A stretch of DNA of 64,000 bases. It comes from an uncultured archaeon (lineage in GTDB: Archaea; Asgardarchaeota; Lokiarchaeia; Sigyniarchaeales; SOKP01). This document shows positions 28,652-36,729 of the stretch, piece by piece. Under the pieces are notes generated by a model that searched no databases, was not told the DNA's origin, and saw only the letters and a program-made list of their open reading frames with translations. Position numbers and translations under genes: made by a program. Each line of letters starts with the position of its first letter. The first letter of the stretch is position 1. The stretch lies in assembly GCA_964388035.1 (NCBI GenBank), contig CAYLZE010000003.1, positions 32,001 to 96,000 of the forward strand, given 5' to 3'.

Positions 28652-28726
28652 TTGTCTCAAGATATTTTATTTATTATTTTTTTAATTTAAATCTAAAAAA
28701 TATAGAAGGTAAAAAGGTAGATTAAA

Positions 28727-29527
28727 ATTAGTTTTAAAAAAGATGTTAAAGAAATTGAAAGGAAAAAAGAAGAATTAAGAACGACTAAATTTAGAAATAC
28801 GGAAATGATCACGGTATTATGGGAGACCAAAAAAGAAATTATAGAGCGCTTGCTTCCGCCCCCCCTGAAACCAGCTAGTAGACCCATTGTAATGAGTTTT
28901 ATCGCTAAATATCCCTCTACAAATCAAGGCCTTCCATATAATGAAGGGGCTCTCACTTTAAGGTGCCAATACCAAGATATACAAGGAAATTATTATTTAG
29001 CAATGCCCGTTACGGATGATCGTGCCATGATTGGAGGGCGGGAGATTTTTGGATTTCCCAAGAAAATGGCGAATGTTGTGTTAACACGGGAGAATAATGA
29101 AGTCCACGCTTATTCGGAGCGGTTAGGAGTTAAAAATATTGAGATCCATGCTAAATTATCAGGTAAATTCAATGATCCCGAAACTCCCAAACTCATTAAA
29201 GAATTGGAATTATTGCCAGGAAGAAAAAAAAATACGATAAATTTTAATTATAAATACTTTCCACACCCAACCAAGGAAGGATTTGATCATGATCCGTGGT
29301 TAGTACAGCAAGAAACTTCTGTAGGACCAAAATCCATGGAAATGGGAGAAGCAGATATACAATTAAACTCAACCATTCATGATCCTTGGGCTGAAGTGGA
29401 AATAGTAAAAGTCTTGGGAGCTTTATACTTGAGAGGGGATAATGAAATGCTACCAGGAAAAATCGTGGCCAAAGTAGATTCAGAACAGTTTTTACCTTAT
29501 TCTTATAATAAATGGGATTGGTACTAG
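28727..29527 (+). CDS. Acetoacetate decarboxylase family protein (probable ATT start; first ATG at 28805)
   Basis: RLLPPPL, PYNEG, GREIFGFPKK (Schiff-base Lys), DPWAE; frame open upstream to TAG 28718. Confidence 0.85.
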   Translation: MSFKKDVKEIERKKEELRTTKFRNTEMITVLWETKKEIIERLLPPPLKPASRPIVMSFIAKYPSTNQGLPYNEGALTLRCQYQDIQGNYYLAMPVTDDRAMIGGREIFGFPKKMANVVLTRENNEVHAYSERLGVKNIEIHAKLSGKFNDPETPKLIKELELLPGRKKNTINFNYKYFPHPTKEGFDHDPWLVQQETSVGPKSMEMGEADIQLNSTIHDPWAEVEIVKVLGALYLRGDNEMLPGKIVAKVDSEQFLPYSYNKWDWY

Positions 29528-29678
29528 CCTTATATAAAAAAACAATTATTTTCAGATATTCTTTTTCTATTCTTTATTTTCTTTTAAAATTCAAACAGGA
29601 TGTTGTAGAACATCATTGATTTTTCTTTGGTTAATTGCAATTTAAATACAAACCATGTAAATTAAAAAAGGAATAAGG

Positions 29679-29800
29679 AAGGAAATGACTCATGGAAATC
29701 CTTTAAAATTTTTAAAGGAAAAGTTTGAACCACAAGGGAATTATTCCAGAGTGGTCAGAGGGCGAAATCCAATATGCGATTTCCATAGAATCCATTCCTT
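29679..29800. ncRNA. Candidate structured non-coding element (~120 nt, multibranch)
   Basis: End-to-end pairing AAGGAAATGACTCATGGAAATC / GATTTCCATAGAATCCATTCCTT enclosing two hairpins; no family recognised. Confidence 0.4.
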
Positions 29801-30082
29801 TATATTTTAGGCGTTTTAATATTTAAAAAGTTGATGAATATATAGAATTTCCGTGTTATCCGTACGAATGATTATTGAATATTTATTCATTAATCCTAAG
29901 AATTAACTAGGTATTATTTGAGGATTCATGCAAAATCGATTAATGGTTACTAAACCAAATAATGAAATTTAGCGTTTGAACCAACTTCTTCTGTAGATCA
30001 GTCATAAATGATTCTCAATCAAAAATACTAAATGATAAATAGAAAATAAAAAAGGATTTCTATAGGTCAAAACTTTAGTAGC

Positions 30083-31084
30083 TTAGAGTCTCTTGATGAC
30101 TACATCTGCCATACGATGACTAAAACCCCATTCATTATCGTACCAGCTAAGGACTGCCACGTGATTTCCTATTACATTTGTCCATAATGGGCAAAATATG
30201 GAGCTATGTGAGTTCTTTATGATATCTTTACTCACGATAGGATCGGGGTTATATTGCAAAATGCCTGCGAGTTTCCCTTCGGAATATTCTTTCATCTTTT
30301 TATTTATTTCTTCTACTGTAGGCGTTTTTTCAACATTTACTTTTAGATCTACTACACTTCCATCAACTGTAGGTACCCTTATTGCCATACCATCGAGTTT
30401 TCCGTTTAAATCGGGGAAGATCAAACCAATAGCTTTGGCGGCTCCCGTCGAAGTTGGGATTATATTTTCCGCACAAGCTCGCCCACGTGTCATTTTTATA
30501 GGATCCCCTGCCTTGGCAGTATCCACAGGTGCTTGCGTGCTAGTATAGGAGTGAATAGTAGTCATTAATCCATTTTTGATAGTAAAGGATTCGTGGAGCA
30601 CTCTCACGATAGGTCCTAAACAATTAGTGGTGCAGGATGCATTGGAGACAATTTTATGTTCTGGTTTAAGTTTATCATCGTTACATCCCATGACTACGGT
30701 AAAATCGGGATTCTTGGCGGGTGCAGAGATTAAAACTTTATCGGCTCCTGCGTCTAAATGTTTCGAAGCACCATCTCTATCAATGAAAAAGCCAGTAGAT
30801 TCTATCGCAACGCTAATATCATTCTTGGAATGAGGTAAATCTGCAGGGTTTCTCTCTTTTGTTATGGGAATTGTTTTTCCATCCACGATGAGAGTATCTT
30901 CGCTTGACTCAACTTTTCCAGGGAAATTTCCGAAGACCGTGTCATACTTTAGAGCATAAGCTAAGTATTTTGGGTTAAACAAATCATTGATGTAAACCAC
31001 TTCAATTTTGGGGTTTTTCCAGACGGCTCGAAAAAAATTGCGGCCAATTCGTCCAAATCCATTAATCATTATTCTTTTTGGAAT
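30083..31084 (-). CDS. gap: Class I glyceraldehyde-3-phosphate dehydrogenase (probable ATT start; first ATG at 31069)
   Basis: INGFGRIGR, SNASCTTNCL, NIIPTSTGAAKA, RVPT, WYDNEWGFS. Confidence 0.96.
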   Translation of the reverse strand: MPKRIMINGFGRIGRNFFRAVWKNPKIEVVYINDLFNPKYLAYALKYDTVFGNFPGKVESSEDTLIVDGKTIPITKERNPADLPHSKNDISVAIESTGFFIDRDGASKHLDAGADKVLISAPAKNPDFTVVMGCNDDKLKPEHKIVSNASCTTNCLGPIVRVLHESFTIKNGLMTTIHSYTSTQAPVDTAKAGDPIKMTRGRACAENIIPTSTGAAKAIGLIFPDLNGKLDGMAIRVPTVDGSVVDLKVNVEKTPTVEEINKKMKEYSEGKLAGILQYNPDPIVSKDIIKNSHSSIFCPLWTNVIGNHVAVLSWYDNEWGFSHRMADVVIKRL

Positions 31085-31351
31085 TTCTTATCACTCTCTT
31101 TATAAGTTTATTTCACAAGTAGGGATACAAGAGGAATTAATAAATCTAACATGTAACATTTATACATTTGAGGTAAAAGTCGAATGGAAGGAGGGAGGAA
31201 AATTTAATTTTTTTTGAAGAGATGAAACATTTTAAGTAACGAATGAGGGAAGAAATTATTCGAGAATTATTTTTAAAGAAAATTCTCAATCAATTTACTC
31301 CGCTTCTACAAATTTATTTGATATTCATTTAAACTTTAAACTAAGAAACTT

Positions 31352-31753
31352 CTATTGTTTTGGTTTCCAATGTTGGAAATATTGAAATAATTCTATAAGA
31401 TTATCGGAAGGATCCAGAAGAAGGATTTGCTTACCACCGACTCCTTTGACCATCTCATTACGAAAACGGCAACCTTCTTTTTTTAATTTTTCTATGAGTG
31501 AATCTAAATCTTCGACTTCAATTGAAATTCTATTCCATCCTCCCGGGATTTGAGGAGTTCCATCTGGCATAGCATAACCACCCCCTTCTTTCTCACTAGG
31601 TTTGGTAAGATATAATTGGATCCCTTCTCGTGAGACAATAGCGAATTCTGGTGCGGGGTGCATGACTATTTCAAATTCTAACATTTTGGTGTAAAATTCA
31701 ATAGCTTTCTCTACATCATTAACGATATATCTAAAATTTATTGCCGACATCAT
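31352..31753 (-). CDS. VOC/glyoxalase family protein
   Basis: RYIVNDVEKAIEFY, PGGWNRI, GGKQILLLDPSDNLIELF. Confidence 0.88.
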   Translation of the reverse strand: MMSAINFRYIVNDVEKAIEFYTKMLEFEIVMHPAPEFAIVSREGIQLYLTKPSEKEGGGYAMPDGTPQIPGGWNRISIEVEDLDSLIEKLKKEGCRFRNEMVKGVGGKQILLLDPSDNLIELFQYFQHWKPKQ

Positions 31754-32148
31754 TTAATTATCCTCAACACCCAATAGTTTTCTTTTAAGTCAAAAAAGAA
31801 TAGATTTGAACTAATCATTCTCTCTTTCTTGTCCAAATTTTTAATTATCTTTAAATTTTATAGGTATTTTTTTCTAATTTATCAAGGATAATGCACCATC
31901 TTAAACTTTCAGTACATAAAATATACATGATTTTTGATTTTTAGATAAATAATTTGCATACTAGAACATAATATCTTTATCGCGTGTTTTGTCGTTTTGG
32001 AAGGGTGTTTCTTTACATTTCAGTCATGGTATTCATGTAAGAAAAAAACAAGAATTGGACTATAAAAAGCATTTATAATGGGTCAGATTTGGTAGATTAT
32101 AGAGAAATAAATTTAAATTAACAATAAATGTAAAGAGTTGATAGAAAA

Positions 32149-32661
32149 ATGGGAGCCGGAAAAACTTTTTCCATTATTGCTGGAATTATCTCACTAATCT
32201 CCATGTTTTTTCTAACATGGTATGTAAAATTGGAAGATGGTGTGCTGAAGCTGGCTTATGGTATTGTAGGATTTAGAAGCATTCCTCACATGTTTGTATA
32301 TCCTGGATTATATGGAACTCCGTATTGGGTCACTTATATTTTTGCCGGGTTATTTATTTGGCTTTTAATCTCCCCATTTATACAATTTGGAGGAGTTAAA
32401 CACCAATTTATTTCAATTTTGGGCGCAACCATGCCCATATTGATAGCAACGATTATATTATTGAGCGGGTTTGGTGGTCCCATACCCCCTTTAATGAGTT
32501 ATGTGGATGCTTTTTTGGAGTCGGAAGTCTTAATACCAGGAATTATCCCTTTAACTTACGAGATTCCTGGGACTTTTTATCCGATTGGTGTTTATGGAGT
32601 TCTTACTGGGGGCGTTCTTAGCTTAATTGCTGGATTTATTCCCCGAAAAAAGAAGGAATAA
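32149..32661 (+). CDS. Hypothetical membrane protein (paralog of 34061-34549)
   Basis: MGAGK..SIIAGI, AYGI.G, PGIIP, GG.LSLI.GFI shared motifs. Confidence 0.8.
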   Translation: MGAGKTFSIIAGIISLISMFFLTWYVKLEDGVLKLAYGIVGFRSIPHMFVYPGLYGTPYWVTYIFAGLFIWLLISPFIQFGGVKHQFISILGATMPILIATIILLSGFGGPIPPLMSYVDAFLESEVLIPGIIPLTYEIPGTFYPIGVYGVLTGGVLSLIAGFIPRKKKE

Positions 32662-32737
32662 ATAAATTATTTTTTTAATTTTTTTTTTTAATTTTTTATC
32701 TCTTTTTATCGTTCTTCATGTTCAATATTATAATCTA

Positions 32738-33610
32738 TTAATTTTCTTGTCCGATGAGAAATTTGATGTATTTGGGAAAATTCTTGGGATGAAAAAAGAA
32801 CGCGGGAGTGCTTTTTTTATAATCTTCATAACTCGCTCCAAAACGCTGTAGTAATTCTTTTTCTTCGACAACTTTTACATGGATATTCATGCCGATTATA
32901 AACATCACGCAAAGAATTATTGAAAATATCGAAAATCGGAAGAAGATAAAGCTAAAACTCATCAAAAAAAGCCCAAGATAAGTGGGATGGCGTACTATCG
33001 AATAAATTTCAAGATTTTGTACTTCAGATTCTTCGGGATAATAAACATATAAAACTGACATGTAATCGATGCCAAAGGTATGTAAAGACCTTAGCACAGT
33101 TCCGAGTGCAAATATTAGGAATCCTAATCCTATAAGAAGTCTAGGGATATAAGTAAGATCGGCATTACCGAAAACAAAATATGAAAGAGGTTTAGACATG
33201 GTCCACATGAGGGAGCTTTCATCTAATTGGGCATAAAAAACATCAAAGGGAATAAATCCGTGTAACATAGAAACCACAAAAAAGGGGATTCCAATAACTA
33301 CATAGGGAAATGCCATTTGATATGCACGTTCTTGGGATAACTCTAAAAATCTTTTTTTTTTACTCCAAATGCAGCTAACAAGATAAATTCCCGTGGCTTC
33401 GAAAATAAGAGAAGAAATAACGACTATGAATGGTCCTATGCTCCTTAAAATTAAATTGGAAGAATAAAGTACTGGAAGAAGATCTAAAAAGATCATCAAA
33501 CACAACGGACCAATGAATGAAAAAGCCATGATGGGAAGGTAAATAAAAAGTTTATTTCCGGGATAATCAGGGAGCTTCGATCTTAATTTCTCTGTTCCTT
33601 TAATATGCAT
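32738..33610 (-). CDS. PEMT/ICMT family membrane methyltransferase
   Basis: IYSIVRHPTYLG, EEKELLQRFG..YEDYKK..P.F. Confidence 0.8.
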   Translation of the reverse strand: MHIKGTEKLRSKLPDYPGNKLFIYLPIMAFSFIGPLCLMIFLDLLPVLYSSNLILRSIGPFIVVISSLIFEATGIYLVSCIWSKKKRFLELSQERAYQMAFPYVVIGIPFFVVSMLHGFIPFDVFYAQLDESSLMWTMSKPLSYFVFGNADLTYIPRLLIGLGFLIFALGTVLRSLHTFGIDYMSVLYVYYPEESEVQNLEIYSIVRHPTYLGLFLMSFSFIFFRFSIFSIILCVMFIIGMNIHVKVVEEKELLQRFGASYEDYKKSTPAFFFHPKNFPKYIKFLIGQEN

Positions 33611-34060
33611 AAAAAGTTCACTTAAACTAAAATATAATTTACAATATAAAGCTTTTTGCGTTTAATCGTAAAGGTTGTGAGGGATTTTTTGTACTATAAT
33701 GTAAAAAATTCAATTTAAACCAAGTTAGTGATTAGAATATAAATTTAAAATAAAAATTAATTTAAAATTACATTCAATTACAATTAGATGCTCTGAAATC
33801 AAGATTAAGGTAAGAAATACGGCTTGAGATCGAAAAACTTACAAAATACTTACAAATTTCTAAGCTCTATTGACAATTTTGAGGGTATAGGAAATTGAAC
33901 TTTTATTGGATATGTATGGATCAAGGGAAAATTCTTTATTTTTTATTATTTTTCGCGGTTTTTTTTAATAAATATTGTATAAAGATTTTAAAAGATAGAT
34001 TGCTATATTAAAATCATCAGAATTAAAAAAATAATTTATACAAAAAAATAGTGATATATT

Positions 34061-34549
34061 ATGGGCGCAGAAAAAGGTTTAAGCGTAATAGCAGGTATTT
34101 TAACGCTGATTGCCACCTATATATTAGTATGGTATACTACTGCGGGAGGTGAATACGCTTATGGGATTGGAGGAATACTTGGTTTTCTTGGTTTACTTAC
34201 AGATTTTACTAATTGGGTCACATATGTCGTCATAGTTATCGATGTCTTGCTTTTAATTTCATTTCTTTTACAATTTATAGGAGCAAAAAGCCGAGCAACC
34301 GCAATTATCGGAGCTATCATGCCATTAGTCATTGGAATTTTTATTATCTTAAACACTTTTGGATTAGATGTTATTGGATTCATGAATTTTCTAAGCGTGT
34401 TCGAGACCTCCTTCACGATTGTTCCTGGGATCATACCTTTCGATTATGCACTTCCTACCCGACCTGAATCAATAGGGACATATGTGTTATTACTTGGTGG
34501 ACTTTTAAGTTTAATTAGTGGCTTTATAAGTAGATCTATCTATTATTAA
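34061..34549 (+). CDS. Hypothetical membrane protein (paralog of 32149-32661)
   Basis: Same motifs as 32149-32661; AGTGA RBS 6 nt before ATG. Confidence 0.8.
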   Translation: MGAEKGLSVIAGILTLIATYILVWYTTAGGEYAYGIGGILGFLGLLTDFTNWVTYVVIVIDVLLLISFLLQFIGAKSRATAIIGAIMPLVIGIFIILNTFGLDVIGFMNFLSVFETSFTIVPGIIPFDYALPTRPESIGTYVLLLGGLLSLISGFISRSIYY

Positions 34550-34681
34550 ATATCATTTCTTTTTTTAATCTTACTTTTCTTTTCTTTTCTTTATTTTCTA
34601 TATTCTTAAAGCCTTCTAACGAAAACTTTTATCGAAATGTGATGTTAAGATGAATTATAATTTATCCGTAATCAATCATTT

Positions 34682-35215
34682 TTGGAAAAAGATATGGAAG
34701 AAATAAAAGAACCTGATGGGTTAGAGAAAAAGTCAATTGCATTCGAAAAGAAAAGCATTAGTTTGCGGGTGGCATTAACAGCCATGACAGCAGCTTTATA
34801 TACTGCTTTAGGGTATATTTTTCAGCCGATAAGCTTTTTAGGAATCCAATTTCGCGTGGCAGAATTGATTGCGGGAATGTGTATTTTATTTCCTTTTGAA
34901 GGGTTAATTGGCAAAGTAATTGGTGTTTTTTTCGTTAACCTAAGTTCTCCCTTGGGGATCATAGATTTACTTAGTTGCATTGTAAATATTCCTGCTTTAT
35001 ATTGTATTATCATTTTTAGGAATAAGAAAAGATTGAAATACTTAGGTGGAATTATATACGCAATGATCATTTCCTTATATGTGGCAATTATCATTAATTT
35101 CGTATTACAATTGCCCATTTGGTTGATTTTCATTCAAGTATTGGTTTCTGAAGTCATACTAGCTTCTTTAGGGATTTTTCTATTCGATTATATACGAAAA
35201 AAAATCGAATTATAA
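34682..35215 (+). CDS. queT: QueT-family ECF transporter S component
   Basis: A..AALY.AL...QPISF..IQFRVAE, NLSSPLGIID. Confidence 0.8.
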   Translation: MEKDMEEIKEPDGLEKKSIAFEKKSISLRVALTAMTAALYTALGYIFQPISFLGIQFRVAELIAGMCILFPFEGLIGKVIGVFFVNLSSPLGIIDLLSCIVNIPALYCIIIFRNKKRLKYLGGIIYAMIISLYVAIIINFVLQLPIWLIFIQVLVSEVILASLGIFLFDYIRKKIEL

Positions 35216-35493
35216 TTAAATTCAAAATAAGTTCAAAACGGGATTAAAGATAACTTCCAAAGTCTATTTTTTAATAAATTCTCTATATTACCGAATAGAA
35301 CTATATTTCTCTTAGAATCTATAGACTTAAATCTTAAATGGAGCGGGTTTTATTCATTAAATCGAGAATATATTAAAGAAAGTGTGATAAAAATCGAAAA
35401 TCTTATATTAGAAAATTACAATGCATCCGAGAATTTTAGAGACATTAGTCTTATTCCAAATGAATCTAATACAATTTGCCTTAAAAATAGCTT

Positions 35494-35943
35494 TTAAATC
35501 GATAAATAATTAGTCTTCAAGTTATTTGGAGGTTCAGATTGAACACAAACGGGCTCAATTAAGCTTTTAATTACGTTATTGAAGCTTTGATATTTCCTAA
35601 TCTCTTTAACTTCCTGATATGAAGCTTCCGGATACATGATTAAAAAAGTATTTAAACATTTCATGAGACTTTTTTCATAGAATGTAATTTTGTCAGAATT
35701 ATCTAATAAAAAGAAGATCATGGTATTTTTTTTCTCATGCATTAAAAACTTTAATTGATTCATCTGAATTAACCGTATTCTATTTTGACCCAATTCATTG
35801 CAGAAATGTCTAATTGCTGTCAAAAAACAGCCAATTAGCTCAGATCCTAGCGCTTCCTCTTTATATTGATTAAGAGAATTAAATTTTTTCGTATAGAGCG
35901 TTATTCCGCTAGGAATGTTTATTATTGATACTATATGTATTAT
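35494..35943 (-). CDS. Longin-like domain protein (probable ATA start; ORF track starts at 35823)
   Basis: Open frame upstream gives (M)IHIVSIINIPSGITLYTKKF...ELIGCFLTAIRHFCNEL; GGAGTGA RBS 6 nt before ATA 35943. Confidence 0.65.
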   Translation of the reverse strand: MIHIVSIINIPSGITLYTKKFNSLNQYKEEALGSELIGCFLTAIRHFCNELGQNRIRLIQMNQLKFLMHEKKNTMIFFLLDNSDKITFYEKSLMKCLNTFLIMYPEASYQEVKEIRKYQSFNNVIKSLIEPVCVQSEPPNNLKTNYLSI

Positions 35944-36256
35944 TATTCATCACTCCAATCATTATAAAAAAATGATTACTCACCTATTGTTTATAAAAAA
36001 CCATTTAAACTAGATGCTTATATCATCTTTTCAATTTTACTGTTTTCACCACAATTAACTCCAGCAAAAAAGGAATATCTTTCATAGTTCAAATTTTCCA
36101 AATTCATGGCTTTCATTAATATTAAAGTGAAACAGAAAATCTTAAAAAATGAGTAGGTGAAATAAATTTAATAATTTCTTGAAATGAAAGCATTTGATTT
36201 ATTTATTAATTCCTTTGAAATAGATAGTGGATAATAAGTTATACAGACGATTAAGA

Positions 36257-36676
36257 TTATTTGATGATATCTGTAATGAAGCAGGTTTCTATTATTTTAA
36301 TTCCTTCAATACGTGAAATTTTATTCTCAATAATTGGGTTGAACTCCTCAATAGAAGGTATTTCTAGCTTTAAAAATAACCCGCATTCTCCTGAAAGTCT
36401 CCAGATATCCGAAATTTCCTCTATAGTTGTTAATTCTTTTATAATATTCTTAATATTTTTAAAATTGGGTTCTATTTTTATCGTTGCACGTATTTTAGGT
36501 TTTGAGTTGATCTCATAATCAATAGTAAATTTTTTGATTATATCATCTTTAATTAAGCTTTTTACCCTCCTCCTGATAGTTGCTTCTGTTCTTCCTACTA
36601 CTTTCGCAATATCGCTATATGAAGATCGACTATCTTTTTCTAATTCCTCCAAAATTCTCTGATCTATTACGTCAAT
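36257..36676 (-). CDS. Lrp/AsnC family transcriptional regulator (probable ATT start)
   Basis: (M)DVIDQRILEELEKDSRSSYSDIAK..G.TEATIRRRV..L...DIIKKFTI; RAM domain LSGEC. Confidence 0.9.
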   Translation of the reverse strand: MDVIDQRILEELEKDSRSSYSDIAKVVGRTEATIRRRVKSLIKDDIIKKFTIDYEINSKPKIRATIKIEPNFKNIKNIIKELTTIEEISDIWRLSGECGLFLKLEIPSIEEFNPIIENKISRIEGIKIIETCFITDIIK

Positions 36677-36709
36677 AAAATTACTTCACCTATTAATGAT
36701 TCTTTTATC

Positions 36710-36729
36710 GATCATTTTTAAAAATGATC
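36710..36729. promoter_or_regulatory. Perfect 20-bp palindrome upstream of the Lrp gene, putative operator
   Basis: GATCATTTTTAAAAATGATC. Confidence 0.55.

Follow-up and report, generated by a model that had tools for sequence, protein, structure and literature searches.

Does an uncultured Asgard archaeon start some of its proteins at codons other than ATG, GTG or TTG? This question is raised by a stretch of 64,000 nucleotides (hereafter, the window) from an archaeon of the Lokiarchaeia, order Sigyniarchaeales, in which an earlier note, made from the sequence alone, had pointed to four genes that appear to initiate at ATT or ATA and had proposed a relaxed start-codon selection. The genes encode an acetoacetate-decarboxylase (ADC)-family protein, a class I glyceraldehyde-3-phosphate dehydrogenase (GAPDH), a protein of predicted longin fold and an Lrp/AsnC regulator. 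Based on the start codons of orthologs, Pfam profiles, a structure model and a frame- and codon-specific Shine-Dalgarno (SD) signal, all of which support the proposal of relaxed start-codon selection, we consider it very likely that all four are intact genes whose translation begins at AUU or AUA.

The source genome (G000) is a metagenome-assembled genome (MAG) of 5.47 Mb in 211 contigs, with a G+C content of 33%, and the window corresponds to G000:C3:32001-96000. The 3' end of its 16S rRNA, from which the anti-SD was deduced, reads GGATCACCTCCT, so that GGAGGTGAT-type motifs are the expected SD sequences. Start codons of orthologs were read in 30–40 relatives of the same order, which are non-independent samples.

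Anatomy of the four start sites

The motifs, spacers, stop codons and ATT/ATA positions that had been described were all found at the four sites. Each ATT or ATA lies 1–3 codons past an in-frame stop and 6–9 nt past an SD-like motif, and in all four genes the interval between the stop and the conserved N-terminus contains no ATG, GTG or TTG. An exact SD 5-mer is present at three of the four sites (for Lrp at a secondary spacing), and orthologs carry ATG, sometimes GTG or TTG, at exactly these codons. Three ATG-initiated genes of the window (34061, 50698 and 56562) had been cited as having the same 6–9 nt spacing; all of them have GTGAT or GGTGA upstream, at 5, 9 and 6 nt from the start, respectively. 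Among the approximately 60 open reading frames (ORFs) of at least 100 codons in the window, no further near-cognate start was found for those with long pre-start stretches, and the earlier estimate of about 4 in 55 genes is therefore fair.

The public calls place the starts of these genes downstream. In an NCBI-sourced public collection, which covers this contig (120,520 nt), the GAPDH entry is a truncated protein of 328 aa starting at ATG 31069 and the ADC entry a truncated protein of 240 aa starting at ATG 28805, which is the kind of truncation by gene callers that had been anticipated. The corresponding explanation, namely that translation begins at the first canonical codon (ATG 28805, ATG 31069, TTG 35823 and TTG 36652) and that the stretch ahead of it is an open but untranslated leader, is very improbable in our view, given what such starts would remove from the proteins and given that an SD close enough to function precedes none of the four codons.

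For the ADC-family gene (28727..29527, + strand, counted from the ATT and assigned by Pfam and ortholog start codons), a weak SD-like AAGGTAG (28714..28720, + strand), in which the 4-mer AGGT matches the anti-SD, precedes ATT 28727 by 6 nt (ATTAAA). The in-frame TAG (28718-28720) lies inside this motif, a second ATT is found at 28721, and the earliest ATG comes at 28805. In the frame that opens with this second ATT, the Pfam ADC match begins with residue 18, whereas the first ATG codes for residue 29, meaning that the profile is already matching eleven residues ahead of that ATG. Orthologs have ATG-AGT-TTT (MSF) over the ATT-AGT-TTT of G000, with one TTG and one ACG/ATT among them. A start at ATG 28805 would cost the protein 26 residues, reaching into the Pfam domain, and these residues are 60–78% identical across genera, with an ATG at their head.

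The Lrp/AsnC regulator gene (36257..36676, − strand, from the ATT; supported by Pfam and 19 orthologous loci) is preceded by the SD GGTGA (36686..36690, − strand), 9 nt 5' of ATT 36676, and its first canonical codon is TTG 36652. Both the HTH_AsnC-type and the AsnC_trans_reg domain are matched, and the helix-turn-helix (HTH) domain is complete only from the ATT. As had been claimed, the ATT restores HTH helix 1: position 1 of the HTH_AsnC-type profile lands on the ATT codon, and a start at TTG 36652 would remove 8 HTH residues (helix 1). In the 19 orthologous loci the ATT codon is ATG in eight and TTG in one, while other orthologs start at ATG or TTG/GTG 1–8 codons upstream. Four family members also show near-cognate starts (CTG in L084 and L087, ATT in L086 and ATA/ATT in L085), with GGAGGT, GAGGT or GGTGA ahead of the start and a stop just 5' of it. 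The TGA of the Lrp SD is at once the stop in frame with the gene and the last codon of an upstream ORF of 9 codons (uORF; ATG ATC GAT ... AGG TGA, 36686-36715, − strand), which could function as a uORF or in termination-reinitiation coupling.

The longin-fold protein gene (35494..35943, − strand, from ATA 35943 with ATA 35934 as an alternative; assigned from the relatives' ATGs, the alignment and an AlphaFold2 model) follows the SD GGAGTGA (35950..35956, − strand) at a distance of 6 nt (TGAATA). An in-frame TGA is located at 35949, further ATAs at 35946, 35940 and 35934, and the first canonical codon is TTG 35823. A broad genome-contig search returned no relatives, and the few that were found in a search among the relatives' genomes have ATG at the aligned codon 2 (35943) and/or codon 5 (35934); in one of them the layout, GGAAGTGA-N6-ATG, equals that of G000. 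Five invariant alignment columns lie 5' of TTG 35823. Even though a Pfam search with this protein gave no match, the AlphaFold2 model (pLDDT 71, pTM 0.68, from a shallow alignment of 5 sequences) has the order strand-strand-helix-three strands-helices and is closest to Sec22b (1IFQ, TM 0.80), followed by Ykt6, VAMP7 and the longin domains of AP sigma/mu. With moderate confidence, given the shallow alignment, the protein would thus adopt the beta2-alpha-beta3-alpha2 longin fold, in agreement with the 'longin-like' label it had been given. According to the model, a start at TTG 35823 would delete strands 1–2 and most of helix 1, in addition to the five invariant residues.

The GAPDH gene (30083..31084, − strand, from the ATT; Pfam and more than 20 orthologs) carries the SD-like GAGTGA (31091..31096, − strand) 6 nt (TAAGAA) 5' of ATT 31084, with an in-frame TGA and an in-frame TAA between motif and ATT. 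Orthologs share an identical SD-N6-start arrangement with ATG or GTG. Both class I domains are complete (Gp_dh_N 8e-35, Gp_dh_C 1.1e-56), INGFGRIGR stands at the N-terminus, and position 2 of the Gp_dh_N profile aligns with the R of PKRI. In more than 20 orthologs, ATG (in one case GTG) occupies the ATT codon and the N-terminus follows the pattern M-x-K-[RK]-[VI]-x-INGFG; one relative reads ATG-CCA-AAA-AGA-GTA where G000 reads ATT-CCA-AAA-AGA-ATA. More distant relatives (at most 57% identity, mostly bacterial) have a lead of 3–5 residues ahead of INGFG and are uninformative on the orthologous codon, for which the family orthologs were used. GAPDH is nonetheless the weakest of the four cases, since ATG 31069, only five codons in, could also serve, and the resulting 328-aa enzyme is conceivable. 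In L122 and L128 this second ATG is present alongside the upstream ATG, and as two relatives carry both, the inner ATG is older than the ATG-to-ATT change; its distance of 21 nt from the SD disfavours its use. A further class I GAPDH gene, at G000:C4:107715-108719 (− strand), is a paralog that shares 66% identity with the copy in the window.

Instead of direct selection of the near-cognate codon, initiation might depend on another route, either read-through of the stop from an upstream canonical start or termination-reinitiation after a short uORF ending in the SD; mechanisms of this type are known to make the demands on the start codon less strict. The uORF that ends exactly in the GGTGA ahead of the Lrp ATT fits this idea, as do the many candidates (described below) that lie two codons past the TGA of a GGTGA, and a CUA-anticodon tRNA is present in a genome in which the upstream stop of the ADC gene is TAG. 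Yet for ADC, GAPDH and longin the interval from the first upstream in-frame stop back to the next one contains no canonical start either. Moreover, orthologs begin with ATG at the same codon without an upstream extension, and a GGTGA motif brings its TGA along simply by virtue of its sequence. Read-through was hence rejected for these three genes, while Lrp does not require it, and we regard these routes taken together as very unlikely.

Genome-wide signal and frequency of near-cognate starts

For the genome-wide analysis, we used a set of 4364 stop-to-stop ORFs that do not overlap one another, are 100 codons or longer and cover 81% of G000. Codons were tested if they were in frame and at least 5 codons 5' of the first ATG, GTG or TTG, and an SD was counted if it was an exact 5-mer at an anti-SD-aligned spacing of 7–10 nt. 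Such 5-mers peak at 7–10 nt for ATG, GTG and TTG and sharply at 9–10 nt for ATT and ATA, with no peak at the AT-rich control codons AAA, AAT, TAT and TTT. Against a background of 146 SD-preceded codons among 18911 non-near-cognate ones, an SD was found for 48 of 1555 ATT codons (odds ratio (OR) 4.1, p 1.5e-13; OR 5.6 against out-of-frame copies, 12/2119) and for 29 of 1156 ATA codons (OR 3.3, p 2.5e-7; OR 3.8 against out-of-frame copies). ATC followed with 9/460 (OR 2.6 against other codons and 5.7 against out-of-frame copies), as did ACG with 4/145 (OR 3.7 and 3.3) and CTG with 3/91 (OR 4.4 and 2.5), the out-of-frame comparison being not significant for the last two. The control codons AAA, AAT, TAT and TTT had an OR of at most 1 against their own out-of-frame copies. 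The scan for a ribosome-binding site followed by ATT, ATC or ATA, which had been suggested as a check, thus returned a 3–6-fold enrichment of the SD relative to control codons or out-of-frame copies. The excess corresponds to approximately 66 SD-led near-cognate genes in G000, a number that is a floor, because only around 10% of canonical first starts have so strict an SD.

Of 46 candidates combining an SD and a near-cognate codon with a first canonical codon at least 18 codons downstream, 39 were run against Pfam. The domain begins 5' of the first canonical codon in 17 of the 18 informative ones, the remaining 21 being uninformative. In the supported candidates the domain usually starts from profile position 1–5 and no more than 25 residues from the ATT or ATA. 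Among them are uS10, PCNA, V-type ATPase subunit D, four Ras-family GTPases, aldehyde:ferredoxin oxidoreductase (AOR), aldo-keto reductase (AKR), Sir2, DHDPS (with an ACG start), ApbA, enoyl-CoA hydratase, an amino-acid permease and a CitMHS transporter. If downstream canonical codons were used throughout, these 17 proteins would lose the start of their Pfam domain, including the P-loop of the four GTPases and the whole N-termini of uS10 and PCNA. One candidate, G000:C45:19178-19471, was ruled out, as it matches only the C-terminal part of NAD synthase (profile 148–242 of 242); this ORF is a genuine fragment, from a broken or split NAD synthase gene.

An SD-independent check compared 369 kb of a sister species (G001) with G000, yielding 210 ortholog pairs. 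A near-cognate start was needed in 11–12 of these pairs (approximately 5%, judged partly by eye), in which conservation extends well 5' of the canonical codon. Extension of BLAST high-scoring segment pairs 5' of the first canonical codon had flagged 41 of the 210; on inspection by eye, most of the 5–8-codon extensions and several of the longer ones proved to be conserved SD-containing leaders, and only the 11–12 pairs were taken as robust. The lengths of pre-start stretches were likewise dropped as an estimator, since they are confounded by operon overlaps. Among the same-position codon pairs behind GGTGA in the two species are ATT/ATG, ACG/GTG and ATT/ACG. A strict SD precedes around half of the pair-supported near-cognate starts, compared to around 10% of canonical starts, and near-cognate starts therefore lean on the SD, though not exclusively. 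Taken together, roughly 5% of the genes of G000 share the pattern, with ATT in the lead, then ATA, then ATC, ACG and CTG.

Distribution of near-cognate starts across the lineage

The pattern was followed through the family for three conserved genes. The start codon of the single aIF1 (SUI1) gene is ATT, ATC or ATA at every one of the 22 family loci, which represent 12 genera, behind AAGGTTGTGA-like motifs, whereas it is ATG, GTG or TTG in 7 of 8 sister-family loci. For uS10, ATA or ATT is found in 8 of approximately 19 family loci and GTG, ATG or TTG on the same codon in the remainder, always with a GGTGA-type SD ahead of the start. In ten sister-family loci the uS10 codon is ATG in six, and the other four start slightly upstream with ATG or GTG; one of these, L306, has ATT on the aligned codon. 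In PCNA, ATT is restricted to the two species of the genus of G000; every other family locus has ATG, as do 78 of the 80 further species representatives. Regarding uS10, we also noticed that L294 and L295 (genus g9) have TCG on the codon that is ATA, GTG or ATG in relatives, behind GGTGAG-N6, and that the stretch from the stop to the conserved QKARIR offers neither a canonical start nor one with a single mismatch.

These data bear on the possibility that the ATT and ATA codons are sequencing or assembly errors of ATG or belong to decaying pseudogenes. G000 is, after all, a MAG of 211 contigs, and a few of its ORFs are real fragments, such as the NAD synthase piece. Nevertheless, the pattern recurs approximately 70–90 times behind SD motifs in a frame-specific manner, near-cognate codons stand at orthologous starts in independent assemblies (PCNA in both species of the genus, uS10 in eight family loci and aIF1 in all 22), and the reading frames of the four window genes are intact and conserved over their full length, all of which makes error or decay extremely unlikely.

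The trait is family-wide, and near-cognate starts come and go inside the family. SD enrichment was not significant in 800 kb of a complete sister-family genome (G026; OR 1.57) or in the 369 kb of G001, both comparisons being underpowered. As their near-cognate state is confined to the species of G000 or to a few relatives, the four genes of the window look like cases of tolerated drift, from an ancestral ATG to ATT or ATA in an AT-rich genome. Dedicated regulation of these genes is not apparent, and initiation is probably weaker than from AUG.

Initiation machinery and a possible mechanism

We next consider the initiation machinery. Using intron-aware ARAGORN, the initiator tRNA was found to be canonical, with A1:U72, three G:C pairs by the anticodon loop and CAU as its anticodon, and its gene contains an intron; an altered anticodon therefore does not explain the near-cognate starts. 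A simple anticodon-arm pattern search had matched non-tRNA sequence only. ARAGORN reported 7 tRNAs without and 22 with the intron search, and the approximately 19–22 tRNA genes detectable in G000, most of which have introns of 11–40 nt, are a set that is incompletely assembled or hard to detect. They include an intron-bearing tRNA with a CUA anticodon ('tRNA-Pyl', G000:C7:54735-54839, − strand), which may be an amber-suppressor or pyrrolysine tRNA.

An inspection of the initiation factors for fidelity-altering substitutions had also been suggested. For aIF1 it revealed no obvious fidelity-lowering change in loop 1, the residues of which look conserved (K/W/K compared to R31/Y32/K34 of P. abyssi) and give no sign of a lost function, and instead uncovered the conserved near-cognate start of the gene itself. 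In G000, the first canonical codon is a TTG inside the zinc knuckle at the N-terminus (CX2C...CxC), past its CPRC half, and the ATT after AAGGAAGGAA yields M-KDEL-ICPRC. The N-terminus read from this ATT agrees with aIF1 of M. jannaschii (4MO0), in which the knuckle begins from residue 4, and matches the CX2CGLPX3CxC motif published for archaeal aIF1 (PMC6237735).

Given these observations, relaxed start-codon selection could be a property of the initiation machinery. SD/anti-SD pairing might park the near-cognate codon in the P site, where ordinary Met-tRNAi would read AUU or AUA with a third-position mismatch, giving an N-terminal Met. Mutation pressure from G to A or T at 33% G+C would keep generating such starts. 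aIF1 of Sulfolobus makes the 30S complex reject AUU (PMC4705826), and homeostasis of aIF1 through its own AUU might hold stringency low enough for near-cognate starts, in a loop resembling that of infC, where a low factor level allows more AUU initiation and the factor is thereby restored. An extension of this idea, which we put forward tentatively and consider less likely than not, is that the aIF1 AUU loop sets a deliberately low, tunable stringency and that the approximately 5% of genes with AUU, AUA, AUC, ACG or CUG starts (including uS10, PCNA, V-ATPase D, small GTPases and GAPDH) belong to one translational regulon, whose output follows aIF1 activity.

Several points weigh against relaxed initiation at the ATT and ATA codons or against the mechanism outlined here. 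The N-termini at near-cognate codons are putative assignments from sequence. The SD of the ADC gene is a 4-mer match, the ATG five codons inside GAPDH gives MINGFGRIGR, such that the ATT is not strictly needed there, and the contamination of the MAG is estimated at 7%. Several ortholog-supported near-cognate starts have no SD, and SD parking thus cannot be the whole mechanism. The sequence of aIF1 itself suggests no explanation for a lower stringency, and its proposed autoregulation is drawn by analogy with other factors.

Comparison with known systems and implications

Near-cognate starts led by an SD are known from infC and pcnB of E. coli, and NCBI table 11 lists ATT, ATC and ATA; in well-studied bacteria they occur in a handful of genes per genome. 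The cases in G000 resemble infC and pcnB in having near-cognates that differ at the third position, a normal SD spacing and downstream canonical codons that mislead gene finders. They differ in frequency, with around 5% of the genes, among them uS10, PCNA, GAPDH and V-ATPase D, and in the machinery, which is of the archaeal/eukaryote type (aIF1, aIF1A, aIF2) and does not involve IF3. The AUU start of infC serves in the autoregulation of bacterial IF3 (Butler et al. 1987, as cited in PMC4705826), and eukaryotic eIF1 autoregulates by way of an AUG in a poor context (PMC4705826). In this family, too, the gene for a factor that discriminates against non-AUG starts has a poor start of its own (aIF1, 22/22). 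However, the fold of aIF1 is unrelated to that of IF3, and the poor start of eukaryotic eIF1 is an AUG in a poor Kozak context rather than a non-AUG codon.

Within the Asgard archaea, the tubulin AtubA from a MAG of the Kariarchaeaceae (Heimdall group) was described as having a 'rare ATT start codon' (PMC13394414). As for the genes reported here, the deposited AtubA protein lacks a part of its fold, the first beta strand, which is restored from an ATT with a plausibly placed ribosome-binding site (PMC13394414). AtubA is a single gene from another Asgard class and was treated as a curiosity, whereas the use in G000 is systematic and includes an initiation factor. According to a review from 2020, archaea use AUG, GUG and UUG (PMC7531240), and our full-text literature search returned only the AtubA anecdote and no description of systematic use or of a near-cognate start of aIF1. 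Near-cognate initiation behind an SD is hence already known as a kind, while we did not find its systematic use in Asgard archaea or the aIF1 start described.

The finding has practical consequences. Standard gene callers accept only ATG, GTG and TTG, and around one in 20 proteins of these genomes is accordingly deposited without its N-terminus, the lost parts being P-loops, HTH helices and first beta strands. Such truncation distorts alignments, structure predictions and expression constructs of 'eukaryotic signature' proteins of the Asgard archaea, the small GTPases and longin proteins of G000 being examples. Moreover, the stringency of start-codon selection is one of the features that set bacteria, archaea and eukaryotes apart by definition. 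Here a lineage that adjoins the eukaryotic root makes routine use of near-cognate starts and has the homolog of eIF1 behind one of them, which allows direct tests of how start-site fidelity and autoregulation of the eIF1 type evolved.

Lastly, a CTP-synthase-like ORF outside the window (g0_2193, G000 C37, + strand) opens mid-protein after a stop, and does so in the same way in G001, which suggests a split gene, read-through or recoding.

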